NCBI GenBank assembly: GCA_016180435.1 | Contig: JACPBG010000001.1 | Location: 216,006-280,005, forward strand | Source: Candidatus Sungiibacteriota bacterium | Lineage (GTDB): Bacteria; Patescibacteriota; Minisyncoccia; Sungbacterales; HO2-52-23 | Reading direction: 5' to 3' | Length of the DNA stretch: 64,000 nucleotides | In this document: positions 2,279 to 59,600 of the stretch, piece by piece | How positions within the stretch are numbered: position 1 is the first letter of the stretch | Layout: each line of letters begins with the position of its first letter | Notes under the pieces: generated by a model | Told to the model about the DNA's origin: nothing | The model's database searches: none | The model's input: only the letters and a program-made list of their open reading frames with translations | Position numbers and translations under genes: made by a program

Positions 2279-3649
2279 ATGCCTCAAATCTCCACCCAAA
2301 ATCCTATTGAGCTTCGCATGCCGCCCCAAAACGTAGAGGCGGAAATGTCGGCTTTGGGATCGCTTATGCTTGACCGCGACGCAATTTTTAAAGTCGCGGA
2401 TTTTTTAAAGCCGCATGATTTTTATAAATCCGCACACCGCGAAATTTACGAGGCGATGCTCGACATTTTCAATCACCGCGAGCCGATTGACGTTTTATCG
2501 GTTACGGCGCGGCTTCGTGAAAAAGGAAAATTGGAGGAAGTTGGGGGATCCGCCTATATCACGAGTTTAGTGAATGTGGTTCCCACCGCCACCCACGTGG
2601 CGCATTACGCTTCAATTGTAAGAAAGAAGCGCCTACTCCGCGATTTAATTGAGGCATCCAGCCATATTGCACAGCTCGGGTACAAGGAGGCGGAGGATGT
2701 TGAACAATTGATCGATGAGGCGGAACAGAAAATATTCGGCATATCGCGCGACTCTCTGCGCCAGGAATTTTTTCTGATAAAAGATGCACTGGAAGAGGCC
2801 TGGGAACGCATTGAAAAAATCCATAACAGCCGCGACGCCCTGCGCGGAGTTACCACGGGCTTTAAAGAACTTGATTCAATCCTGGGGGGCTTGCAAAAAT
2901 CGGACTTGGTCGTGCTGGCTTCGCGCCCGAGTTTAGGAAAAACATCGCTGGCTCTGGATATTTCACGCAATGCCGCGCGAGCCAAACACGCGGTCGGCGT
3001 ATTTAGCTTAGAAATGTCCAAAGAACAGCTGGTGGACCGCTTAATCGCCAGCGAGGCCGCAGTAGACCTTTGGCGCCTGCGCACCGGACATTTAAATCAG
3101 CACGGCGATGGAAATGATTTCTCACGATTGCAAAGCGCTTTATCCACTCTATCGGAACTTCCCCTGTATCTGGACGATACGCCATCCCCCACCGTAATGG
3201 AGCTTCGCGCCAAAGCCAGGCGGCTGCAATCCGAAAAAAAACTTGAACTGGTGGTAATTGATTACCTTCAGCTAATTAAAGGTTATGGAAGCCCGGAGTC
3301 GCGAGTGCAGGAGGTATCGGAAATTTCTCGCTCCCTCAAGGCCATGGCCAAAGAGTTAAATGTGCCGGTGCTTGCTCTTTCCCAGTTATCGCGCGGAGTT
3401 GAAATGAGGCCCTCGGCCATTCCCAAACTTTCGGATTTACGCGAAAGTGGAAGCATTGAGCAGGATGCGGACGTGGTCATGTTTATTTACCGCGAAGATA
3501 AAGTCAAAGAAAACAGCGAACGTAAAAACATCGCCGAAATCCGCGTGGAAAAACACAGGAATGGCCCCACCGGCAAAATTGAACTGTATTTCCACGAAGA
3601 AACCGCCTCATTCCGCTCTCTTGAAAAACATATGGAGGAACTTATATAA
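2279..3649 (+). CDS. dnaB: Replicative DNA helicase DnaB
   Basis: 456 aa; DnaB N-terminal domain (NVEAEMSALGSLMLD), Walker A GxxxxGKT (SRPSLGKTS), C-terminal RecA-like motifs (DYLQLI, ESGSIEQDADVV). Confidence 0.93.
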   Translation: MPQISTQNPIELRMPPQNVEAEMSALGSLMLDRDAIFKVADFLKPHDFYKSAHREIYEAMLDIFNHREPIDVLSVTARLREKGKLEEVGGSAYITSLVNVVPTATHVAHYASIVRKKRLLRDLIEASSHIAQLGYKEAEDVEQLIDEAEQKIFGISRDSLRQEFFLIKDALEEAWERIEKIHNSRDALRGVTTGFKELDSILGGLQKSDLVVLASRPSLGKTSLALDISRNAARAKHAVGVFSLEMSKEQLVDRLIASEAAVDLWRLRTGHLNQHGDGNDFSRLQSALSTLSELPLYLDDTPSPTVMELRAKARRLQSEKKLELVVIDYLQLIKGYGSPESRVQEVSEISRSLKAMAKELNVPVLALSQLSRGVEMRPSAIPKLSDLRESGSIEQDADVVMFIYREDKVKENSERKNIAEIRVEKHRNGPTGKIELYFHEETASFRSLEKHMEELI

Positions 3650-3650
3650 A

Positions 3651-3797
3651 ATTATTCTAATTGTTCTAATTAACCTAATTGTTCTAATCAATGACCATAA
3701 AAAATGTCTAATGACCAAAACTATTTTAGATATTTAGACATTCGCAAAATTGGGATTTAATTAGGTAAATTAGAATAATTAGGTTAATTAGAATAAT
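3651..3797. repeat. AT-rich palindromic intergenic element E1 built from TTCTAAT / ATTAGAA heptamer arrays
   Basis: Left half attattctaattgttctaattaacctaattgttctaat; right half aattaggtaaattagaataattaggttaattagaataatt is its inverted counterpart; near-identical copy at 5158-5299. Confidence 0.8.
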
Positions 3798-3806
3798 TTT
3801 TATTTC

Positions 3807-4433
3807 TTGTACCCAGCGCCTATTCAAAAATTAATTGACCTGTTCACCAAATTTCCCGGCATTGGTCCCCGACAAGCCACTCGCTTTGTTTTTTTTATGC
3901 TGAAAAATCGTGCCCTTATACCCGATTTGCGGCAGGGATTGGCGGATTTGGATAGAAAAATCGCTTTTTGCCCGCTATGCTATCGGGCGCTTGAACAAAA
4001 TGGCGAAAAAGGCGCGTACTGTATGCTATGCCGCGACACCAAACGGAATAGCCGACAAATCGCCGTGGTGGAAAAAGAAGCGGATTTGCAAAATTTAGAA
4101 AAAACCGGATCATATTCCGGCCTTTATCATGTCTTAAGCGGACTCATTGCGCCGCTTGATCCAAATTCTCCAAAGGGTTTGCATTTAAAAGAATTGCACG
4201 AGCGGGTCAATAATCTACTGGAAAAAGAGAGGAAATGTGAGATTATTTTGGCAACCGGAACCACAACCGAAGGCGACATGACCGCGCTTTATATTGAACG
4301 AATCCTAGCGCCTTTGAAAAACAAATTTCCGGAACTTAAAATCTCGCGCCTAGGCCGAGGACTCTCACTCGGCTCCGAACTTGAATATGCGGATGAAGTA
4401 ACCCTGAAAAACGCCTTAACGAACAGGAAATGA
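3807..4433 (+). CDS. recR: Recombination protein RecR
   Basis: 208 aa; HhH N-terminus (FPGIGPRQATR), C4 zinc finger CPLC...CMLC, Toprim region. Confidence 0.9.
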   Translation: MYPAPIQKLIDLFTKFPGIGPRQATRFVFFMLKNRALIPDLRQGLADLDRKIAFCPLCYRALEQNGEKGAYCMLCRDTKRNSRQIAVVEKEADLQNLEKTGSYSGLYHVLSGLIAPLDPNSPKGLHLKELHERVNNLLEKERKCEIILATGTTTEGDMTALYIERILAPLKNKFPELKISRLGRGLSLGSELEYADEVTLKNALTNRK

Positions 4434-4482
4434 AGGAATAATATAGCTACTTAAAATTATACTTTTCTGATTAGCAGCTTTT

Positions 4483-5157
4483 CTATCCGTACACCGGGGA
4501 CTCGCGGTAAATACAGTACTCGCAATTTTGATGGGCTTTGGGAATCGGGCCGGTAACGATTTCGCGGACTCTTTTTAAAACCGAGATGCCACGCGATGGA
4601 GAAACATCCATTTTGATAAGTTCGGTCTTAAAATCCGCCGCACCCATGCCGTATGACGTTGGCCAGAAAAATAATAAATATCCGTATTCTGCCGGAGGCA
4701 TTTTATTTTCGCGGAAAAGCAAAGCATATAAATCAAGCTGGGTGCGGTAATGTTCATGCGTATCCTCTTTGGTCGGATAACCGCGGGTTTTGAAATCAAA
4801 CGGCACAAACTTTCCGTCAGGCGCAATTAACAAATCGTCAATCGCGCCGCGAAGCACAATATCAAGGTCCGGAAATTTTGCCCCAAGACCCCCGCGGCCA
4901 AAATCTACTTCACGCCATTTATTAAATTCGGCCAAATTTTCATTATAAAGCCGGCCATCCGCTTTTCCATCAATCTCCGGAGGCAATTCGCCGCGTTTCC
5001 GATATTCGTCAAAATATTTTTTGAAAACATTATCCATTCCGTCCGGAAGCGACGGATAGGCGCCGCGCGGGCGCTTTTTATTTTCATTCATCTGCAGCCA
5101 AAGACAGCGCGGACATTCCAATAAATAACTTGTACCGGATGGAGAAACTTTAATCAC
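4483..5157 (-). CDS. Cas4/RecB-family PD-(D/E)xK nuclease with putative Fe-S cysteines (stand-alone)
   Basis: Motifs IDDLLIAPDGKFVPFDFK (D..D/ExK), QLDLYALL (QxxxY), Cys pairs CPRC (N-term) and CEYC (C-term). Start uncertain: track start at 5199 is TTG inside repeat E2; GTG at 5157 or ATG at 5091 are alternatives. Confidence 0.55.
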   Translation of the reverse strand: MIKVSPSGTSYLLECPRCLWLQMNENKKRPRGAYPSLPDGMDNVFKKYFDEYRKRGELPPEIDGKADGRLYNENLAEFNKWREVDFGRGGLGAKFPDLDIVLRGAIDDLLIAPDGKFVPFDFKTRGYPTKEDTHEHYRTQLDLYALLFRENKMPPAEYGYLLFFWPTSYGMGAADFKTELIKMDVSPSRGISVLKRVREIVTGPIPKAHQNCEYCIYRESPVYG

Positions 5158-5299
5158 AATTATTCTAATTACTCTAATTGCTCTAATTATTCTAATCAAA
5201 TCCTAATGACAAAATGTCTAAAAACTTTAGGAAATAGGCATTCAAATCATTGAGGTTTTTTAGGTTAATTAGGTCAATTAGAATAATTAGGTTAATTTA
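5158..5299. repeat. AT-rich palindromic intergenic element E2 (second copy of E1 family)
   Basis: aattattctaattactctaattgctctaattattctaatc ... aatgtctaa ... ttaggttaattaggtcaattagaataattaggttaatt; collinear with E1 at 3651-3797. Confidence 0.8.
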
Positions 5300-5747
5300 A
5301 TAGGCCCTTTATTTCCTTCAAAATACTATCCGGCACCGGATCACGCTCGGGCGCATGCCCGGGATAGCGCCAAGCGGTTATCACTTTAATTCGTTTAGGT
5401 TTGGGAATTGGAAATTGAGAATTGGAAATTCCTCGCACGGCCGTTACCATATACATAACCCATATTTCGGAATATTTCTTTCCTTCTGCCGGAGACATAG
5501 CAGCAATAGCGCGAGGCAATATCCCCTCCTCCGCCCGCGCCGGATGACGAATCACCCGTTTAATCCGCGATTCAGTCAAACGATAATGCCGCATTTTCAT
5601 ACGCGAGTGCTGAGTCCAAATATATTTATCACTCCATCCTCCTGAATGTCCCACGGTCTTGATACGAGAATGAAGAATTTTCTTCAATCTTTCTCGCGGG
5701 GTCCAATATTCCGCGCGAAGACGGGGGAATTTATCCACAGATATCAT
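5292..5747 (-). CDS. Hypothetical protein, DUF4258-like motif (possible toxin-like small protein)
   Basis: WTQHSRMKMRHYRLTESRIKRVIRHP resembles the DUF4258 T-x-H-A-x-E-R-M-x-E-R-x-I signature; contains in-frame simple repeat at 5401-5436. Confidence 0.35.
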   Translation of the reverse strand: MISVDKFPRLRAEYWTPRERLKKILHSRIKTVGHSGGWSDKYIWTQHSRMKMRHYRLTESRIKRVIRHPARAEEGILPRAIAAMSPAEGKKYSEIWVMYMVTAVRGISNSQFPIPKPKRIKVITAWRYPGHAPERDPVPDSILKEIKGLLN

Positions 5748-10740: not shown

Positions 10741-10829
10741 GTTTGCTTCGCAAAAGATCTTAGAACTTAGCGTCTAGAACTTAGTAATTTTCTAAGTTCT
10801 AAGTTCTAAATTCTAAGTTCTCGTATTAA
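10741..10829. repeat. Heptamer array element E3: 2x AGAACTTAG then 4x CTAAGTTCT (inverted)
   Basis: tcttagaacttagcgtctagaacttagtaattttctaagttctaagttctaaattctaagttctcg upstream of minus-strand gene 10426-10740. Confidence 0.75.
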
Positions 10830-12759: not shown

Positions 12760-12915
12760 AAAACTCACAAAGCACAGAAACCAAGACATAAACAAGCACT
12801 AAAATTCAAAATTCACCTAATTTCTAAGGCCTGAATTTTTAATTTCTTTATTTGGTATTTTATTAGAAATTAGACAATTAGGTAATTAGAAATTTATCTT
12901 AATGGGTTTTGTGCA
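12760..12915. repeat. Repeated ~150-bp leader/element E4 upstream of metK (homologous to 39476-39760 minus its inserted small element)
   Basis: acagaaacca..actaaaattcaaaattcacctaatttctaaggcctga..taatttctttatttggtattttattagaaattagacaattaggtaattagaaatt..gggttttgtgc shared almost verbatim with the region upstream of neuB. Confidence 0.75.
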
Positions 12916-12966: not shown

Positions 12967-13150
12967 GAAAAAAGCTATCGCTCCCCTTACAGGGCTGGCA
13001 TTGGCACTATTCCGCTTTTAACGGAACTTTGCTGGCGGGTCATAGGGCCAGATCCCTCACCGCACTCTGGATAAAACATAAATTTTGATTATCTATATAA
13101 TACATGCAACTATACAAAAAACAAGAAAGTTTTCCACAAACATCCGACCA
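12966..13150 (-). ncRNA. Candidate small non-coding transcript (unclassified)
   Basis: ~180-nt GC-richer stretch between two minus-strand terminators, preceded by AT-rich promoter-like sequence at ~13085-13130, ending in the terminator at 12936-12966; contains several helices (gggccagatccc, ccgcttttaacgg); no match to SRP/6S/RNase P/tmRNA motifs that I could recognise. Confidence 0.2.
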
Positions 13151-16706: not shown

Positions 16707-19481
16707 CTAGATTTTGCCGTGGCAATGCTTATACTTCTTTGGGCGGCCGTCAGAATGGGCCGCTCCGCACGGGCAGGGGTCATTGCGACTTGGTTCTTTT
16801 TGGCCTTTTAATTTAATAGAAGCTCCCATTTTTCCCGAAGAAGATTCTTCGCCCGGTTTAAATTGACTTACCGCAATATCCGGCCGGCGCTCCTCAACCC
16901 GGCGGGGATTTTCTCCGGCCATAGATATGGCGCCGACTTTAAAAATGGTGTGAACTATTTCACTGCGAATCGCGGCCTGCAGCTGCCGAAAAAGCCGCAC
17001 GCCCTCATTTTTATATTCCACTAATGGATCGCGCTGTCCGTAGGCGCGCAGGCGTACCGAATCGCGCAAATGCTCCATTTGATCAAGCTGATCCATCCAT
17101 AAAACATCAATGGTGCGAAGCATCACGGCGCGCTCGGAAGAGCGCATCTGCTCATCTCCCACGGCCTTTTCATGCTCTTCATATTTTGACTCCAAAACAT
17201 CAAATATAAAAGTGCCTATCTTATTGCGCTTCTCATCGCCGTATAATTCCTCGCCCGCAATTTCACGGAGTTTATGATGCATATCATCGGAAATCGACGC
17301 AATACTTTTTACTCCCTCGAATATTTCTTCAAGATTCCAATCGTCAATCCGATCGGCTGATGCATGAAATTCCACTAATTTTGAAACTTCTTCCTTAATC
17401 ATATCAAAAATCCTTTCGCGTAAGGTAACTTTCTCGACTTCGCTCGAAGAATAATTATCTAAGTTACCATTTGGGATTTGGGATTTGGGATTTGGGATTT
17501 CCGAAAAGAGAATATCTTTTCGGAGGCGGTATATTGAGTCCCTCTGCCTATTCAGCACATCATCAAACTCCAGCACGTGCTTTCGCGCATCAAAATGAAA
17601 CCCCTCGATTTTTTCCTGCGCGGCTTCAATAGCGCGCGATACCATGCGGTTTTCAATTGGCTGATCTTCAGGGATACCGAGAGTTTCCATCATGCGCCTC
17701 ACCCTCTCTGCCCCGAATATCCGCATCAAATCGTCTTCCATAGATACGAAAAACTGCGACTCGCCCGAATCGCCTTGCCGTCCGGCGCGTCCGCGCAACT
17801 GATTATCGATCCGGCGCGCCTCATGCCGCTCGGTGCCGATCACGCATAACCCCCCCAACCCGCGGACAATATCAGCTTCTTTCTGATCCTGCGGATTTCC
17901 TCCAAGAATTATGTCAACGCCTCGTCCGGCCATGTTGGTTGCAATTGTAACAGCACCAGCTCTGCCGGCTTGCGCGATGATCAATGCCTCGCGCTCGTGA
18001 TTTTTGGCGTTTAATACCTCATGCGGCACGCCTTCAACCTCAAGCATTTTGACCAGGCGTTCATTTTTTTCGATGGACACGGTGCCAACAAGCACCGGCT
18101 GACCTCTGCCATATCTTTCTTTTACTTCGCGTACAACTGCCTGCATTTTCCCCCGCTCGGTGCGAAATACCAAATCAGGCAAATCGCGGCGCACCATGGG
18201 GCGATGCGTGGGAACGGATATCACGTCAAGGTTATAGACCTTATGAAATTCCTCGGCCGAGGTTTGCGCGGTTCCGGTCATGCCCCCGAGTTTTTTATAC
18301 ATGCGGAAATAATTTTGAAACGTAATAGTGGCAAGGGTCCGCGATTCCTGTTCAACCCGCACGCCTTCTTTGGCCTCCACCGCCTGATGCAATCCCTCCG
18401 ACCAACGGCGCCCGGGCATAAGGCGCCCGGTAAACTCATCCACAATTGTCACTTTGCCGTCCTTTACCACATAATCGCGATCACGCGTAAATAAGGCTTG
18501 CGCCCGCAAGGCCTGTTCCAGATGATGCACAAAACGAATTCCTTTTTCCTCATAAATATTTCCGATGCCAAGCATTTGCTCAACTTTATCAATACCCGCC
18601 TCGGTGATGGATACGGCGCGCAGTTTTTCATCCACATTGTAATCAATATTTTCTTTCAGGCGCGGTACGATTTTTGAAAATACGCGGTAAAGTTCGGCGG
18701 ACTCTGCATCCGGCGCGGAAATTATCAAAGGAGTTCGCGCCTCATCAATTAAAATGGAATCCACCTCGTCAACTATGGCGTAATGATGGTGTTTTTGCCG
18801 AAGCGATTCGGGCGCATATTCTAAATTATCGCGCAAATAATCAAAGCCGAATTCGTTGTTGGTGCCGTAAGTTATGTCCGCGGCATAGGCTTCATGCCGC
18901 GCACAAGGCCGGAAATGCGAAAGGCGCGGATCATCATGACGCTGGATGTCTTGAAATTCCGGATCATAAATTCCGGAAAATTCATGGGCGATAACTCCGG
19001 TTGATACGCCCAGCGCGTGATACACCGGCCCCATCCAGCCCGCGCCAACCCGCGACAAATAATCATTCGGAGTAACCAAATGCGCGCCCCTGCCTTCAAG
19101 CGAATTCAAATAAAGCGGCAGGGTGGCCACCAGGGTTTTTCCCTCGCCGGTTTTCATCTCGGCAATTTTTCCCTCATGAAGCACAATTCCACCGGCTAAC
19201 TGCACATCAAAATGCCGCTGATTAAGTTTTCTCTTGGCAGCTTCCCGAACCGCGGCAAACGCCTCAGGAAGAATTTCTAACAGGGATCCGATCCCTGTTA
19301 CAGGGATCGGATCCCTGTTTATTCCTAGACGCCGCTTAAATTCAACCGTAAGATTTCTAAGTTCTTCATCTGAGAATTTTTCAAAATCTTTCTCCAATTC
19401 ATTGATCTCATCAACAATCGGCTGGAGAGATTTTATATAGCGTTCATTGGCATCCCCAAAAATTTTTCCCAAGATTGACAT
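16707..19481 (-). CDS. secA: Protein translocase subunit SecA
   Basis: 924 aa; DEAD-like motor (MKTGEGKTLVATLP, DEVDSILIDEARTPLIIS), C-terminal zinc-binding CPCG...HCHG; carries two unusual in-frame insertions (17470-17499; palindrome near 19270-19320). Confidence 0.95.
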   Translation of the reverse strand: MSILGKIFGDANERYIKSLQPIVDEINELEKDFEKFSDEELRNLTVEFKRRLGINRDPIPVTGIGSLLEILPEAFAAVREAAKRKLNQRHFDVQLAGGIVLHEGKIAEMKTGEGKTLVATLPLYLNSLEGRGAHLVTPNDYLSRVGAGWMGPVYHALGVSTGVIAHEFSGIYDPEFQDIQRHDDPRLSHFRPCARHEAYAADITYGTNNEFGFDYLRDNLEYAPESLRQKHHHYAIVDEVDSILIDEARTPLIISAPDAESAELYRVFSKIVPRLKENIDYNVDEKLRAVSITEAGIDKVEQMLGIGNIYEEKGIRFVHHLEQALRAQALFTRDRDYVVKDGKVTIVDEFTGRLMPGRRWSEGLHQAVEAKEGVRVEQESRTLATITFQNYFRMYKKLGGMTGTAQTSAEEFHKVYNLDVISVPTHRPMVRRDLPDLVFRTERGKMQAVVREVKERYGRGQPVLVGTVSIEKNERLVKMLEVEGVPHEVLNAKNHEREALIIAQAGRAGAVTIATNMAGRGVDIILGGNPQDQKEADIVRGLGGLCVIGTERHEARRIDNQLRGRAGRQGDSGESQFFVSMEDDLMRIFGAERVRRMMETLGIPEDQPIENRMVSRAIEAAQEKIEGFHFDARKHVLEFDDVLNRQRDSIYRLRKDILFSEIPNPKSQIPNGNLDNYSSSEVEKVTLRERIFDMIKEEVSKLVEFHASADRIDDWNLEEIFEGVKSIASISDDMHHKLREIAGEELYGDEKRNKIGTFIFDVLESKYEEHEKAVGDEQMRSSERAVMLRTIDVLWMDQLDQMEHLRDSVRLRAYGQRDPLVEYKNEGVRLFRQLQAAIRSEIVHTIFKVGAISMAGENPRRVEERRPDIAVSQFKPGEESSSGKMGASIKLKGQKEPSRNDPCPCGAAHSDGRPKKYKHCHGKI
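17470..17499. repeat. In-frame simple-sequence repeat (TTGGGAT/GGGATTT)x4 inside secA
   Basis: ttgggatttgggatttgggatttgggattt encodes IPNPKSQIPNG in SecA. Confidence 0.85.
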
Positions 19482-19535
19482 AACCGTTATTATACTGCTT
19501 TTTATCCAAAATAAAAAGGCCTGTCCAATGACAGG

Positions 19536-21779: not shown

Positions 21780-22068
21780 TCGCTATAGCGGTTTTCGACC
21801 GCTACAATTTCAGACACGACTCGGTTGCTCCTGCGGCAACCTCGCTAAGGGTCGGCGCGGTTTTCCGCGCAAAGCGCGGATCCAAGCAAACCGCGCCTCC
21901 CATTGTCTGAAATTGCAACGGCCTCAACCGCCTGTATGCTCACCTTAGGGTTTTCTTATTGTATCCGCTTTCAGCGGACTCTCCCATTGCCTAAAATCAT
22001 GTGACTTTAGCCATCCGTATACTTACCTTAGGGTTTTCTTATGGTGGCCGCCTTTGGCGGCCAACTAA
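21780..22068. other. Structured GC-rich intergenic region with two ~40-bp tandem direct repeats (CCTTAGGGTTTTCTTAT + hairpin)
   Basis: Copies at ~21943-21985 and ~22025-22065; additional inverted pairs caatttcagaca/tgtctgaaattg and several GC hairpins; function unknown. Confidence 0.5.
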
Positions 22069-26183: not shown

Positions 26184-26284
26184 ACCCCGTTAGAGATTTG
26201 GTTATCCACATTACACATGCGCGTCAAAAAACACCTAAAACGTATTTCATCAGTACTACAAGAATCTTACATCTCTAACGGGGT
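26184..26284. mobile_element. Small TIR-bounded element (MITE-like), copy a: ACCCCGTTAGAGAT ... ATCTCTAACGGGGT
   Basis: 14-bp perfect terminal inverted repeats flanking ~73 bp non-coding DNA; same TIR family at 37057, 39537, 52234, 52257. Confidence 0.65.
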
Positions 26285-28132: not shown

Positions 28133-29513
28133 CCGCATCAAAATCACGCTTCTTATTTTAGGGGACTTTCTAACACTCTGGGGAACCCTAATTTTGATTT
28201 TGTTTCTCCGCTATCACGCCGATCAAGATTTCGATCTACAAAAAATGTTTCAAATCCATGTAGCGCCTTTTACTCTCGTATTTGCCGCCTGGCTCGTACT
28301 TTTCGGCGCTTTTGGATTATACGACATACGGACGCTCGGCCTCGTTACCATACGGGATGCGCGGAGGCTTTTATTAAGAATGACGGAAGCAATGGCGTTT
28401 AATACGGCCTCGGCCATTATCATTTTTTATTTGATTCCGGCATTTGAAATCGAACCGCGCCGCAATTTATTCTTGGTGGTTTTGGGATCATTATTCTTCA
28501 TCTTTACATGGCGCTGCCTTATTAATCTTTTCATAACCAAAGCCAAGCCCTTACCGATCGCATTTTTTGGCATTAACAAAGAAGTGGTGGAGCTTGCGGA
28601 TTGGCTCCTGAAAAATCCGCAGCTCGGAAGAAAGCCGGCCGCATTCATATCCGCAAACAGCGAGGACACCCTGCGTCCCCTGCCCCTTCCCGTGTTCACC
28701 CACACCCAAGACATGCAGCATCTAGCGCGCGATTTGGCGCTGGATGCCATAATCATTACCCGCGAGATCAAAGAGAATAAAACACTGACGCGCGCTCTTT
28801 TTCAAATGATACCGCTGGGCGTAGGCATTACGGAATTTACGGCATTCCACGAAATGCTCACCGGAAAAATCCCTTTATCACTCATAGGGGAAGTGTGGTT
28901 TTTGGAAAATCTGGCTGGCAGCCAAAAAGACATATATGAATTTTTCAAACGCGTGCTTGATATCGGACTTGCCATACTTCTGGGCATTCCATTTTTAGTC
29001 CTTTTACCTTTAACTGCAATTTTTATCAAAATCAATTCGCCGGGTAGAATATTCTTCCGGCAAAAACGGGTGGGTAAAAATGGAAAGGAGTTTTTTCTGA
29101 TAAAATTCCGTTCTATGGTGCAGACTGCCGAAAAACTTGGCGGATTTAAAAATGAATCCGAAGACCGCCGCCATACCGGCGTAGGAAAATTTTTAAGAAA
29201 AATATATATTGACGAATTGCCACAAATAATAAATGTTTTGCGCGGTGAAATGTCATTTATCGGACCGCGGCCGGAGCGGCCCGAATATGTCCGCGAACTA
29301 AAAGAAAAAATTCCGTTTTACGAAATGCGACTTTTAGTTCCGCCCGGCATCACCGGCTGGGCGCAAATTAATATGGAGAATGACGCATCCGTGGAGGATG
29401 CGCCGGAAAAAATGCAGTATGATCTTTATTACATCAAAAATCGTTCATTCCTGCTGGATATTCTAGTGGCGCTCCGCACAATTTTTATCATTCTCCGCCG
29501 CCCTGGAAGATAG
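28122..29513 (+). CDS. Polyprenyl-phosphate sugar phosphotransferase (WbaP/PssY-like initiating transferase)
   Basis: 463 aa; N-terminal TM helices, C-terminal Bac_transf domain (KFRSM, DELPQIINVLRGEMSFIGPRPERP, PGITGWAQIN). Confidence 0.85.
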   Translation: MATNRIKITLLILGDFLTLWGTLILILFLRYHADQDFDLQKMFQIHVAPFTLVFAAWLVLFGAFGLYDIRTLGLVTIRDARRLLLRMTEAMAFNTASAIIIFYLIPAFEIEPRRNLFLVVLGSLFFIFTWRCLINLFITKAKPLPIAFFGINKEVVELADWLLKNPQLGRKPAAFISANSEDTLRPLPLPVFTHTQDMQHLARDLALDAIIITREIKENKTLTRALFQMIPLGVGITEFTAFHEMLTGKIPLSLIGEVWFLENLAGSQKDIYEFFKRVLDIGLAILLGIPFLVLLPLTAIFIKINSPGRIFFRQKRVGKNGKEFFLIKFRSMVQTAEKLGGFKNESEDRRHTGVGKFLRKIYIDELPQIINVLRGEMSFIGPRPERPEYVRELKEKIPFYEMRLLVPPGITGWAQINMENDASVEDAPEKMQYDLYYIKNRSFLLDILVALRTIFIILRRPGR

Positions 29514-30106: not shown

Positions 30107-30502
30107 TTACAATGGTCTACAAAAAACGGCAAAATTTGCCCTTCCTGCGGCAGAAAAAATGCAAAAAAGAACGGATATTCACGCGGCAAGCAGCAATATA
30201 AATGCTTAAAGTGCAATAAGAAGTTTTCCGGTCAAAGACGACGCGGTATTTTACAAAGTATTCTTTGGCAGCAATACGCCCATGATTATTGCACAGTAGA
30301 TCAACTGACCCGCAAGTATCACCGAAGCGAAAAGTGGATCCGATCTCAACTGGATGCATACCGATTCCCGGAACATAAGATGGCGCCGCGTCCGGTCGTG
30401 ATCGTGGCTGACGCCATGTTCTTTGGAAGACACTGGGGAGTGGTAGTAATGCGCGCTCCGCACAATTTTCATCATTCTCCGCCGCCCTGGAAGATAGGAT
30501 AA
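30107..30502 (+). pseudogene. Zinc-ribbon transposase remnant (IS1/IS1595-type N-terminus; truncated, no ATG start)
   Basis: Frame encodes KNGKICPSCGRKNAKKNGYSRGKQQYKCLKCNKKFS (CxxC-N17-CxxC ribbon) then ...PRPVVIVADAMFFGRHWGVVV resembling the start of a DDE domain; ORF ends inside the duplicated 45-bp segment. Confidence 0.45.
30453..30497. repeat. 45-bp direct duplicate (44/45 identical) of the 3' end of the sugar-transferase gene (copy 1 at 29469-29513)
   Basis: gcgctccgcacaattttcatcattctccgccgccctggaagatag vs gcgctccgcacaatttttatcattctccgccgccctggaagatag; encodes ALRTIFIILRRPGR* in both places. Confidence 0.9.
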
Positions 30503-30548
30503 AAACAGGTTATTATCACAAATTGTCATACGGAATATCTGTATTTTT

Positions 30549-30586
30549 TACTCTGATATGTATACGATCGAAATAATATCAGAGTA
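30549..30586. promoter_or_regulatory. 38-bp palindromic site TACTCTGATAT-N16-ATATCAGAGTA (copy A, downstream of PaaX-like gene)
   Basis: tactctgatatgtatacgatcgaaataatatcagagta; second copy at 31284-31321. Confidence 0.6.
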
Positions 30587-30638
30587 AATCTGAATATCCG
30601 CCGCAGAACCATACAGAAAAATAAGATAGATAATACAT

Positions 30639-31232
30639 TTAAATTTCGTGAATGGTCCCGCGCTTATTTACCGAAAAAATATGAACGTGCGGTAGTAACT
30701 TTCTTTCCCGAATTGCATGAATAAAATCCTCGTCTATGGCATTGCCGCGGCTAACCCAAACGCTTTTTTGCAACAATTTAAATTCCATTTCTCGAAGACA
30801 AGCACGAACCCAATCACGAGCCCTGCGCTCTTTTTCGGGGATGTCAAATGCAACAATTATCAAACCGCTCCCCGTCGGAGGATCAAGTGAAACGGAAAAT
30901 TTTGAAAAATTATTCTGGGAGCGATCACGGATATACCTTAATCGTTCAATGCCACGTTTAGTAATATTCCAAAATGACGACTTTCCTTTTTCTTTTTTTA
31001 CCACCAATCCCTCATGTTGCAAATAATTGAGGGTGTTGTAAAATTGACGATGTTTCCTATAGATATCGGCCCAATCAGTTTTGAACTGGCGCGGACCTTG
31101 AGATAAGAATCTCCGATAATCGCGACGTGCCTCAGATTTAGACATAAAAAAGGATTTAAATAAATCAACGGTCACTTCCGCCTCGAATTGAAGTAATTCT
31201 AGAATTTTTTCGACAAACGTTTCGCGCTTCAT
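30639..31232 (-). CDS. PaaX-family-like transcriptional regulator: N-terminal winged HTH + C-terminal Cas2-like domain
   Basis: 197 aa; C-terminal LIIVAFDIPEKERRARDWVRACLREMEFKLLQKSVWV parallels Cas2 N-terminal beta-alpha-beta (lVlVsYDIsdd.rRrkvaklL..yGqRVQySVF) and the PaaX middle domain. Confidence 0.55.
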   Translation of the reverse strand: MKRETFVEKILELLQFEAEVTVDLFKSFFMSKSEARRDYRRFLSQGPRQFKTDWADIYRKHRQFYNTLNYLQHEGLVVKKEKGKSSFWNITKRGIERLRYIRDRSQNNFSKFSVSLDPPTGSGLIIVAFDIPEKERRARDWVRACLREMEFKLLQKSVWVSRGNAIDEDFIHAIRERKLLPHVHIFSVNKRGTIHEI

Positions 31233-31283
31233 TTAAATATATTCAGTGGCCAAAAACCGCGTTCCAGCCCGCAAAAATTTATA

Positions 31284-31321
31284 TACTCTGATATTTATAC
31301 GATCGTATTTATATCAGAGTA
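31284..31321. promoter_or_regulatory. 38-bp near-perfect palindrome (copy B) ~50 bp upstream of PaaX-like gene; putative operator
   Basis: tactctgatatttatacgatcgtatttatatcagagta (34/38 self-complementary). Confidence 0.6.
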
Positions 31322-31382
31322 AAAAATATTATTACTGGTCTGGTACTACTTGGGGGGAAGATAAAAAAACAATTATTAATAC

Positions 31383-32294
31383 TCAAAAAATATGCAACAG
31401 AGTTTTCAACTCATTTATTCCGTCAACAAAAGATATTTTTGGTTCCCAGCCGAGAAGTTCTTTGGCTTTCTTGATATCGGCCAAAGTTTCTAATACTTCG
31501 CCCTGGCGCGATTCGATAAATTTCCACGGCCCGCCGATCATCTCGGCGATTTCAAGAACACTGTAGTTCGTTGCCGTACCGATATTTACTATTTCTCCTT
31601 TGCCTACTTGACCGGATTTCATGGCAAGCAAATTGGCGCGCGCCACATCCGTAACGTGCGTAAAATCCCTACGCTGGGTCCCATCCGGCACCACACTCAT
31701 TGGCGTACTATTCGCACGTTGCTCTAAAAAAATTCCAATTACAGTTGCATATGGTCCGTCGGAAGCAGTGGTTTGCCGAGGCCCATAAACATTAAAATAA
31801 CGCAAAGAAACTGTTTCTAGGCCATAAAAACGCGCGGCCATTTCGCAATATTGCTCCCCCACTCTTTTCTGAATCGCGTAAGGAATAATGGGCTCCGGAC
31901 GCATGTCCTCCGTAAGAGGCATCACATCTTTTCTGCCGTACGCGGAGGAAGACGCGGAATACACCACTCTTTTGACTCCCGCATCGCGCGCCGCCAAAAG
32001 AACATTCAACGTTCCAGTAATATTGATATCATTGGTAAGCCGCGGCTCTTTCAGGGAATATTGCATTCGGGGTTGCGCCGCAGTATGGAAAATTCCCGCT
32101 GCACCCTTGAAAACCGGCGCAAGTTTGTCAAAATCGCGGATATCCATCTCATGAAGGATGGCCTTAGGATTTAGCCGCTCGCGCTTGCCGGTCAAAAAAT
32201 TATCAATAACATGCACTTCGTCGCCGCGCGCAATCAGCATATCCACAATATGGGAGCCGATAAAACCAGCCCCGCCGGTTACAATAAATTTCAT
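31383..32294 (-). CDS. NAD-dependent nucleotide-sugar epimerase/dehydratase (extended SDR)
   Basis: 303 aa; TGGAGFIGSH Rossmann motif, YxxxK (YAIQK). Confidence 0.85.
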   Translation of the reverse strand: MKFIVTGGAGFIGSHIVDMLIARGDEVHVIDNFLTGKRERLNPKAILHEMDIRDFDKLAPVFKGAAGIFHTAAQPRMQYSLKEPRLTNDINITGTLNVLLAARDAGVKRVVYSASSSAYGRKDVMPLTEDMRPEPIIPYAIQKRVGEQYCEMAARFYGLETVSLRYFNVYGPRQTTASDGPYATVIGIFLEQRANSTPMSVVPDGTQRRDFTHVTDVARANLLAMKSGQVGKGEIVNIGTATNYSVLEIAEMIGGPWKFIESRQGEVLETLADIKKAKELLGWEPKISFVDGINELKTLLHIF

Positions 32295-32326
32295 TAGGAA
32301 TTAGGAATTAGGAATTAGGAATTAGT
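32294..32326. repeat. Tandem heptamer array (AATTAGG)x4.5 abutting the epimerase start codon
   Basis: attaggaattaggaattaggaattaggaattag; on the coding strand (CTAATTC)n runs directly into ATG with no Shine-Dalgarno. Confidence 0.85.
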
Positions 32327-37048: not shown

Positions 37049-37056
37049 CCCGTTAG

Positions 37057-37146
37057 AAGTATAATTCTTAAAAAAACACGCCTCTTAAAAATACAGGTGT
37101 TATCATTTGATCCTGTAGAAAGTATAGACCCAAACTTCTAACGGGA
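37057..37146. mobile_element. Small TIR-bounded element copy b: TCCCGTTAGAAG ... CTTCTAACGGGA
   Basis: 12-bp terminal inverted repeats of the CCCGTTAGAA family flanking ~66 bp; fills the neuC-flippase intergenic region. Confidence 0.6.
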
Positions 37147-39475: not shown

Positions 39476-39760
39476 CTAAAACTCACAAAACACAGAAACC
39501 AGAACTAAAATTCAAAATTCACCTAATCTCTAATTTACCCCGTTAGAAATAAACAAATATAGTAGCATCTGCAACTCGTTTTTATCGGTAAAAATAGATA
39601 ATTTCCGCACTAAAAACATCTTCTGTTTCTTTCTAACGGGGTGAACCTAATAAAATTTCTAAGGCCTAAGTTCTTAATTTCTTTATTGGACATTTTATTA
39701 GAAATTAGACAATTAGGTAATTAGAAATTGAGGCCGCTATTTGGGTTTTGTGCGTTTATT
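39476..39760. repeat. Copy E5 of the ~150-bp leader element (see 12760-12915) upstream of neuB, interrupted by a small TIR element
   Basis: acagaaaccagaactaaaattcaaaattcacctaat...[insert 39537-39642]...tttctaaggcctaagttcttaatttctttattggacattttattagaaattagacaattaggtaattagaaatt...gggttttgtgcg. Confidence 0.75.
39537..39642. mobile_element. Small TIR-bounded element copy c: ACCCCGTTAGAAA ... TTTCTAACGGGGT
   Basis: 13-bp perfect terminal inverted repeats; inserted within the repeated leader element relative to the uninterrupted copy upstream of metK. Confidence 0.7.
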
Positions 39761-43281: not shown

Positions 43282-43453
43282 AGTATGATATACTGTATAT
43301 GTTATGTGAAGCCCACGAAAAAGTATTATTGGCTGAGCGCAGTCGAAGCCCAACCTTGCGCAAGGCAAAAGGTAACTTCTCGACTACGCTCGAAGAATAA
43401 TATCCTTATGATTTTTCATGAATCTCATATAAATAATAACACATAATAGAAAC

Positions 43454-52233: not shown

Positions 52234-52440
52234 ACCCCGTTAGAAACGGGCGCTTCGCCCCGTTAGAGATTTATAGAGTATTGAACCCATTTAAGAAAAA
52301 AATCATATTTTCACTTATATAGTCGGGGTCTTGTCGCGCCATATCTCTAACGGGGTGAGCGACCTGCCAATGAAAGCATTATACTCCCATCAGCTATTTC
52401 TATCTCTACCGCGACAGAGTCGGTGGCGTTCTAACGGGGT
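52234..52440. mobile_element. Nested pair of small TIR elements (outer ACCCCGTTAGAAA...GTTCTAACGGGGT; inner CCCCGTTAGAGAT...ATCTCTAACGGGG at 52257-52354)
   Basis: Inner element sits 10 bp inside the left end of the outer element; inner TIR variant (GTTAGAGAT) is identical to copy a at 26184. Confidence 0.65.
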
Positions 52441-59345: not shown

Positions 59346-59600
59346 AAATCACCCTTCGATAAATTGTACTATAAAAGTACAACCACAAAACGATATGTCT
59401 AATATAGCATAATTATACTATACCGTCAATAAAAATTCGCTGAGTTTGGTGAATAATAAGATTTTAAGCCAATTTTATTCTTCGAGCCTGTCGAGAAGTA
59501 CATTATGGATTAAGGTAATTTCTCGACGCGCCGCCGCTGCGGCTTGCTCGAAAAATAACTTATCATTGCGCGGCCTATAATTTACGCTAAAATAAAAGCA

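Follow-up and report, generated by a model that had tools for sequence, protein, structure and literature searches.

Why should a genome carry long palindromes wedged exactly between the stop codon of one gene and the start codon of the next? This question is raised by two elements, here called E1 and E2, in a stretch of 64,000 nucleotides (nt) from a Candidatus Sungiibacteriota bacterium (assembly GCA_016180435.1, contig JACPBG010000001.1, positions 216,006 to 280,005), referred to below as the window. Both are imperfect palindromes, roughly 145 bp long. The reading favored here, with a probability of about one half, is that E1 and E2 are gene-less members of a probably mobile, intervening-sequence-like cassette family that has spread through the Candidate Phyla Radiation (CPR), and that their arms would pair in operon RNA, probably to be cut by RNase III.

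Anatomy of E1 and E2

E1 (positions 3650-3798, 149 bp) occupies the spacer between dnaB and recR, and E2 (5158-5299, 142 bp) lies in the spacer between ORF151, an open reading frame (ORF), and a gene for a PD-(D/E)XK nuclease, both encoded on the minus strand. A first-pass annotation of the window had described the two as collinear copies with inverted repeat arms around a core. Global alignment confirms the collinearity, with 70% identity, and the arms and the core are found as proposed: the left arm consists of four head-to-tail units in which CTAATT recurs every 9 bp, the right arm is its mirror image, built on AATTAG, and the core AATGTCTAA is common to both elements. The same annotation had taken a heptamer as the building unit of E1 and E2; this had to be corrected, as the measured period is 9 bp and the unit is the nonamer NNNCTAATT.

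The left arm of E1 (3650-3691, plus strand) carries CTAATT at 3657, 3666 and 3675 and CTAATC at 3684, and its right arm (3757-3798, minus strand) carries AATTAG at 3759, 3768, 3777 and 3786. Between them, the centre of E1 (3692-3756) runs from AATGACC through AATGTCTAATGACC and TTAGACATT to ATTGGGATTT. E2 repeats this arrangement, with CTAATT at 5165, 5174 and 5183 and CTAATC at 5192 in the left arm (5158-5199, plus strand), and AATTAG at 5267, 5276 and 5285 together with a degenerate unit at 5258 in the right arm (5256-5299, minus strand). The centre of both elements is partly palindromic in its own right (AATGTCTAA...TTAGACATT).

Chance AT-rich sequence was rejected as an explanation on the basis of phasing and folding. 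The phased pattern YCTAATTNNYCTAAT was found 11 times against 0.01 expected, which upholds the view that the elements form a real, non-random family. Of the earlier expectation that the heptamer would be unusual in both frequency and phasing, only the second part stood: the bare heptamer TTCTAAT shows no enrichment (16 found against 14.8 expected), and 12 of the 16 occurrences are concentrated in four loci. Strict arrays of period 7 number four in the window, while other periods from 4 to 12 yielded none, as did Markov simulations. Folded as single-stranded RNA, E1 and E2 reach -40 to -44 kcal/mol (z = -5.9 to -8.5 against shuffles).

A family of short elements in CPR genomes

Three phased CTAATT units were sought in one genome per species, which gave at least 119 loci. 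Inverted pairs of arms, 100-250 bp apart and with identical termini (AAATTATTCTAATT...AATTAGAATAATTT), occur in many phyla of the Patescibacteria/CPR, including Saccharibacteria and Roizman-, Shapiro-, Levy-, Curtiss-, Doudna-, Staskawicz-, Yanofsky-, Uhr-, Moran- and Magasanikbacteria. An arm profile (AATTattCTAATTantCTAATTantCTAATTaatCTAAanAAnncCcAA) retrieved 36 two-arm elements, almost all in genomes labelled as CPR, and matches E1 at 3648-3697 (plus strand, E = 1.6e-12) and 3800-3748 (minus strand, E = 9e-12). Over their full length, E1 and E2 are 72-78% identical to copies of other phyla, which is as close as E1 is to E2. Units of 7 bp (AATTAGA) are mixed into some arms of the family. 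Canonical copies were also found in a few genomes labelled Chlamydiae, Gammaproteobacteria and Bacteroidota, possibly from mis-binned contigs.

The position of these elements relative to genes follows a clear pattern. They lie between co-directional genes in 33 of 35 cases, against a background of 71% (p = 8e-4). In most copies a stop codon is found about 0-10 nt from one end, usually as a TAA fused to the terminal AAAATT, and a start codon 4-15 nt from the other end. The residual spacer has a median of 20 nt against 73 nt in the background, a difference that is not significant with the crude gene calls used (p = 0.13). The orientation of the short copies relative to their flanking genes is unbiased (17 vs. 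14).

Additional searches concerned the setting of the related loci. Rfam detected no rRNA beside 28 of them. A phage-borne element was also considered and rejected: 120 viral contigs matched the pattern, a canonical two-arm copy was present in none, and the matches were other tandem repeats. In the metagenome-assembled genome BP7.bin63 (L042, L061, L097, L102), canonical elements are nested in another repeated palindrome, GGATCCAGGAGAGT...ACTAACCTGGATC, and several elements from other genomes have GC-rich hairpins, such as CCTGCCTGCCGGTAGGCAG, inserted in the centre or right arm. Together, nested palindromes and inserted hairpins suggest layered insertions.

Filled and empty junctions

E1 and E2 are insertions specific to their lineage, and orthologous junctions lack them. 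In a related strain, contig L005 matches the window exactly until about position 5030 and then diverges; E2 is absent from it, and the two genes that flank E2 overlap there. The cysS-ORF-dnaB-recR synteny is kept in relatives, in which the dnaB-recR spacer measures 30 nt where RecR is 78% identical and 1 nt where it is 67% identical, with no arm anywhere in the dnaB-recR loci of these two relatives. A relative whose RecR is 83% identical carries a different, GC-rich palindrome of about 165 nt at the same junction (L327, 3915-4080), bounded by its own outer inverted repeat (AAGAAATGTGCTTTTGAAAAC...GTTTTTCCAAAGCACATTCT). Palindromic inserts may land repeatedly at the dnaB-recR junction. In these presence/absence comparisons the flanks are too diverged for exact element boundaries. 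Comparison of orthologous intergenic regions had been proposed as a check on the idea of regulatory sites, and its outcome goes against that idea: since E1 and E2 are missing from the junctions of relatives, they are not conserved operators or regulatory sites.

The PF05635 cassette as the long form

Common arms link E1 and E2 to a family of longer, gene-bearing cassettes. In three CPR genomes (L016, L026, L040), arms of the E1/E2 type enclose an ORF of about 120 aa that matches PF05635 (23S rRNA-intervening sequence protein), TIGR02436 (four helix bundle protein) and PDB 2RLD, a structure with five chains. No such ORF is present in E1 or E2; it is enclosed only in the long relatives with the same arms. 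A metagenome search with the enclosed proteins found at least 577 relatives, and among the 69 best with both flanks available, canonical arms stand on both sides in 44 and on one side in 7. Most of the other 18 carry inverted arrays of variant heptamers, for example TTTCTAA, TTTCCAA, AATGACN or TCGAAAT. The cassette is about 470 bp long, and its gene points the same way as the upstream gene in 38 of 40 cases.

Two types of arm can be distinguished in these cassettes. In the upstream arm, the inner motif AATGACYAATGA contains the ATG of the gene. The downstream arm ends differently, in AAATCCCAAT, which is also the inner motif of the right arm of E1 when read on the minus strand. Furthermore, the E1 core AATGTCTAATGAC is identical to the first codons (ATG TCT AAT GAC) of the PF05635 gene in L026. 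An ORF remnant in E1 was nevertheless rejected, because past the first 13 bases the likeness to the PF05635 gene is unconvincing, and BLAST alignments of E1 and E2 to the cassettes are confined to the arms and inner motifs. The PF05635 family is known to resemble Avd of diversity-generating retroelements (PMC10053308), and a pentameric structure has been cited for related proteins (PMC4990558).

Distant homologues of the enclosed protein (33-44% identity) are encoded on plasmids of Nostoc, Planktothrix, Anabaena and Chlorohelix. Inverted tandem heptamers flank 6 of the 8 cyanobacterial and Chloroflexota records, and their units (TTCAAAA, TTTACGA/TCCCCAA, AGTAAAA, GTCGGAG, TTCGTAA, ATGAATT) are unrelated to the CPR arms. 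Entirely different heptamers stand beside proteins that are 65-70% identical, which points to arm pairing, and not one DNA-binding specificity, as the common property; what the cassettes share is a design and not a repeat sequence. The homologue cassettes often lie inside defence operons. TIGR02436 cassettes in L333, L335, L336 and L337 (plasmids of Planktothrix, Anabaena, Pseudanabaena and Chlorohelix) are found in or beside such operons, lying between the two genes of a drmD/MmeI-type enzyme, a cas2/cas1 and a helicase-related/DNA methylase pair, and also upstream of cas1. No earlier description of the CPR elements, or of an association between TIGR02436 and inverted short-unit arrays, was found in the literature, although the coverage was incomplete and one may exist.

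Gene context of E1 and E2

Both elements are in immediate contact with coding sequence. The TAA stop codon (3647-3649) of dnaB (2279-3649, plus strand) is fused to the AATT terminus of E1, and recR (3807-4433, plus strand) begins with TTG 8 nt past the element. The nuclease gene (4483-5157, minus strand) has a GTG start that immediately adjoins E2. Neither recR nor the nuclease gene has a Shine-Dalgarno sequence. On the other side, ORF151 (5292-5747, minus strand; no Pfam match) terminates inside the right arm of E2, which supplies its stop codon (5292-5294).

Within the window, a Shine-Dalgarno-like motif precedes only about 12 of 55 genes, and a TATAAT-like box stands 5-8 nt before the ATG at many starts, e.g., 19482-19500, 43435-43453 and 59575-59600. 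This suggests that leaderless mRNAs are frequent in this Sungbacteria genome. The elements also leave traces in sequence data: in Logan contigs of the same species (L001-L007), short-read contigs repeatedly start or stop within the arms of E1 and E2, and gene callers stretch the nuclease ORF into E2 (238 vs. 224 aa).

Proposed mechanism and evidence weighed against it

According to the proposed mechanism, copies would land in short spacers of co-directional genes and be transcribed along with them. Each arm, made up of four CTAATT units of 9 bp (sometimes 7 bp) and then an inner motif, with the two arms distinguishable, would find its partner in the operon RNA, and the two would pair into a long interrupted duplex of 6-bp CUAAUU/AAUUAG helices separated by 3x3 loops. 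This duplex is probably a substrate of RNase III, as in 23S rRNA intervening sequences, and cleavage would excise the insert or split the cistrons, making the insertion tolerable. Translation of the downstream gene would then need no Shine-Dalgarno sequence, which most genes of this genome apparently do without. Such pairing and processing would explain how an insert can be tolerated right between a stop codon and a start codon, and the processing would likewise explain the co-orientation of the PF05635 gene with upstream transcription.

The model draws on rRNA biology. ORF-bearing rRNA intervening sequences are bounded by complementary ends, the Coxiella stem is cut by RNase III in vitro, and these sequences are regarded as selfish and horizontally moving (PMC4990558). 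The S23p/IVP ORF is also present in rRNA insertions of CPR bacteria (PMC11270868). The consensus structure of 29 copies from many phyla is compatible with pairing: it consists of four helices of 6 bp (CUAAUU/AAUUAG) with 3x3 internal loops between them, and, together with the fold energies, it makes a long stem from the complementary termini of E1 and E2 possible. In the alignment of these copies, CTAATT is invariant in all 8 units, and the intervening triplets are variable and unpaired.

Several observations weigh against this reading. RNAalifold found zero covariation in the 29 copies; every paired column is invariant, which makes the hairpin covariation test uninformative. Within one element, the variable triplets of one arm match those of the other in 31% of cases, against 47% between unrelated elements (119 matches observed vs. 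a permutation mean of 177 +/- 10). The arms are not selected for complementarity, and the low matching is partly due to the two arms being of different types (polarity). Conservation is therefore one of sequence, beyond pairing alone: since CTAATT is invariant without covariation, sequence-specific recognition explains it at least as well as pairing does. Target-site duplication left no signal, as direct repeats of 3-9 bp are not in excess at the 36 elements, whatever the offset, where a palindromic AATT or 2-bp duplication would be indistinguishable from the element ends. No PF05635 gene of this subfamily lies within the window, and none of the cassettes examined lies inside an rRNA gene. Finally, descent may have run either way, with the short form derived from the long or the long from the short.

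Alternative explanations

The invariance of CTAATT without covariation keeps alive the idea, already present in the first-pass annotation, that the arms are arrays of protein-binding sites. In this explanation, each 9-bp unit would be taken by one subunit or domain of a sequence-specific DNA- or RNA-binding protein that drives mobility or regulates the flanking genes; candidates include the pentameric four-helix-bundle protein, a recombinase, and a nucleoid or regulatory protein. The part of the idea that stood is the behaviour of the sequence itself: the motif is fixed in 8 units of 29 copies from distant phyla, the triplets between vary and stay unpaired, and the phasing is constant with about four units per arm. 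The pentameric state of related proteins (PDB 2RLD; PMC4990558) and the two distinct arm types, reminiscent of transposon ends, would also fit. The part that did not stand is the protein, as no candidate binder was found among the genes of the window. A shared protein-DNA code is unlikely because cyanobacterial proteins 65-70% identical carry unrelated heptamers; additionally, the 9-bp spacing would place successive sites on different faces of B-DNA, and the elements' absence from orthologous junctions speaks against conserved operators. Binding-site arrays are thus considered an unlikely, though live, rival to RNA pairing.

The closeness of start codons could instead reflect a role in gene expression, in which the outer units would serve as an outward promoter (with TAGAAT as its -10 box) or as a Shine-Dalgarno-independent leader, and the hairpin would be an insulator or terminator for the upstream gene. 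The start codons 4-15 nt past the outer unit leave no room for a Shine-Dalgarno sequence, in a genome that seldom uses one and often has a TATAAT-like box shortly before the ATG. Furthermore, an ATG directly follows the solo array at 32293-32325, and TAACTGA heptamer repeats 1 nt upstream of start codons without ribosome-binding sites are known from Beggiatoaceae (PMC4679880). The outermost unit reads TAGAAT or TAGAAA at 18 of 28 start sides; however, it does so at 13 of 31 stop-codon sides as well, which gives no clear asymmetry. The sole sigma-70-like match in E1 and E2 has a poor second hexamer (AATAAT), promoter-like matches in the region are no commoner than in shuffles, and no GC-rich stem stands beside a T run as in intrinsic terminators. 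Short copies lie in both orientations to genes, and in relatives these gene pairs are expressed with no element between them. Overall, an expression module is quite improbable.

A similarly low probability is assigned to an ordinary MITE (a miniature transposable element with inverted repeats), which would be moved by a transposase encoded elsewhere through multiple subterminal sites in the arms, with PF05635 as passenger cargo. Some transposons do have multiple subterminal binding sites. E1 and E2 share with MITEs their terminal inverted repeats, small size, lack of coding capacity, occurrence in several copies per genome and presence/absence polymorphism, and a second, unrelated family with inverted ends (CCCCGTTAGAA-type, described below) is active in this genome too, and one copy carries an insertion of it. 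In contrast to this expectation, target-site duplications of 3-9 bp were not detected, none of the viral-contig matches is a canonical copy, and a transposase between the arms was seen in none of about 36 genomic elements and 80 metagenomic loci, whereas the long forms hold the gene for the PF05635 four-helix-bundle protein.

Comparison with known systems

A close parallel to the long cassettes is offered by the 23S rRNA intervening sequences of Leptospira and Coxiella, which are inserts of about 0.4-0.5 kb with complementary, stem-forming ends and an optional PF05635 ORF of about 120 aa. Like the present family, they are transcribed within the host RNA, show a sporadic distribution that suggests horizontal spread, and exist in short forms without the ORF (PMC4990558, PMC11270868). 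Unlike them, E1, E2 and their relatives sit in the spacers of protein operons and not in rRNA helices, and their ends are tandem 9/7-bp arrays in place of a simple 28-bp stem. As they have neither the rRNA location of intervening sequences nor the transposase of MITEs, E1 and E2 are assigned to neither class.

MITEs such as Correia/NEMIS, ERIC and RUP are likewise palindromic inserts of 100-160 bp that lie near genes and are co-transcribed. The Correia/NEMIS elements of Neisseria, in particular, are reported RNase III substrates and carriers of promoter parts. E1 and E2 differ from all of these in having no sequence similarity to them, no detected TA duplication, internally repetitive arms and long relatives that encode a four-helix-bundle protein in place of a transposase.

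Intergenic heptamers offer another comparison. The TAACTGA repeats of Beggiatoaceae, cyanobacteria and Bacteroidetes, and the cyanobacterial short tandemly repeated repetitive (STRR) heptamers, comprise 2-6 short units, are mostly intergenic and are patchily distributed across phyla (PMC4679880). In the E1/E2 family, as often in these repeats, the array ends a few nt before a start codon without a ribosome-binding site. The two differ in that TAACTGA and STRR units measure exactly 7 nt, whereas E1 and E2 have 9-nt units in two inverted arrays around a core. The account of the TAACTGA repeats makes no mention of S23 proteins or of intervening sequences (PMC4679880). With Avd of diversity-generating retroelements the cassette protein has its fold and family in common (PMC10053308); unlike in Avd systems, no reverse-transcriptase gene was noticed beside the inspected cassettes, where template and variable repeats were not searched for.

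Other identities were examined and rejected. A replication origin with iterons does not agree with the cumulative GC skew, which is monotonic over the window, or with the absence of the elements from relatives. No known RNA family accounts for them, as Rfam (15) was empty at gathering and relaxed thresholds, with chance-level matches only (plant microRNA hairpins, E 0.4-7, far under gathering scores). Integron attC sites are recognized by GTTRRRY cores and REP/BIME elements by GC-rich palindromes of 35 nt; inspection by eye found neither feature, and no integrase or RAYT gene lies nearby. A TIGR- or CRISPR-like array was dismissed as there are no box C/D motifs, spacers, Tas or Cas gene. TIGR arrays are defined by box C/D motifs flanking spacer pairs and by an adjacent Tas (Nop-domain) gene (10.64898/2026.09.09.750476), and such spacer pairs with box motifs do not fit because the 9-bp period has just 3 variable bases.

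Related arrays and other repeats in the window

Two further members of the family, both degenerate, lie in the leaders of metK and neuB. The first (12805-12902) is built of 8-bp units (ATTAGAAA/TTAGACAA...), and the second (39511-39731) lies upstream of neuB, with its left arm interrupted by an element of about 118 bp (39533-39650). The arm profile derived from relatives matches both, at 12851-12891 (E = 4e-4) and 39687-39726 (E = 4e-3), which substantiates the kinship that had been proposed for these leader elements. The recurrence of units with a CTAAT/CTAAG core is also upheld. A SAM (S-adenosylmethionine) riboswitch at 12972-13077 (minus strand, 53 bits) precedes the metK start (12748) by about 220 nt, so that the degenerate palindrome would sit between the SAM aptamer and the metK coding region.

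Two arrays had been counted as relatives with less reason. The short palindrome at 10755-10821, made of inverted heptamer arrays (AGAACTT / TTCTAAG x4.6), occupies a stop-to-start spacer. The solo array at 32293-32325 (minus strand, 4.7 copies of ATTCCTA) lacks an inverted partner and runs up to an epimerase gene, ending at its ATG. Both are true heptamer arrays; homology to the arm profile was not detectable, and the design alone is common. Nearly every array in the window has 4-5 units. Heptamer arrays also occur within coding regions: a TTGGAAA-type array in ORF151 (5401-5430), which with adjacent bases makes up 27 extra nt missing from contig L005, and (ATTTGGG)x4.6 in frame within secA, at about codon 660 (17469-17500).

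A second family of small elements, about 90-120 bp long with inverted ends (CCCCGTTAGAA...TTCTAACGGGG), is found at 26186-26282, 37049-37145, 39533-39650 and 52236-52438. It comprises at least five copies, two of them nested at 52.2-52.4 kb (13 matches vs. 4 expected). The copy at 37049-37145 occupies a stop-to-start spacer, and that at 39533-39650 is the one inserted in the left arm of the CTAATT-type element at 39.5 kb.

Other repeats also occur in the window. A single gene with a PaaX-like domain (30639-31232) stands between two 48-nt segments (30542-30589 and 31281-31328), which are 88% complementary to each other and both palindromic within themselves (ACTCTGATAT...ATATCAGAGT). A 45-nt direct repeat with 98% identity stands at 29469-29513 and 30453-30497, 984 bp apart. 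In addition, a tandem pair of 44-nt segments (21934-21977 and 22017-22060) is 82% identical at 83-bp spacing, and each segment ends in a small GC hairpin.

Implications

Taken beyond the CPR, these observations allow a tentative and rather doubtful generalization, in which inverted arrays of 7-9-nt repeats together with an Avd-like four-helix-bundle gene would form one unrecognized class of selfish cassettes that spans CPR, cyanobacteria, Chloroflexota and the classical rRNA intervening sequences. Such cassettes would insert into transcribed DNA (operon spacers, defence loci, rRNA) and, at the RNA level, take themselves out again; the arrays would be the target of the protein, and the intergenic heptamers (STRR, TAACTGA and the arrays of this window) would be gene-less forms or footprints.

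For genome analysis, the practical consequence is that elements of the E1/E2 type break short-read assemblies and distort gene-start calls, and the arm profile can serve as an annotation marker. More broadly, three puzzles have stood apart: the nature of rRNA intervening sequences and their S23p/IVP proteins, the abundance of intergenic heptamers, and the tolerance of repeats in streamlined CPR genomes. What ties them together is that inverted short-unit arrays flank one and the same protein family in CPR, cyanobacteria and Chloroflexota, and that CPR genomes also have a conserved form without the gene, placed exactly between stop and start codons within operons. If this is true, RNase III processing is predicted in operon transcripts, the four-helix-bundle protein would be expected to bind the arrays, and insertion polymorphisms would reveal the mechanism by which these elements move.

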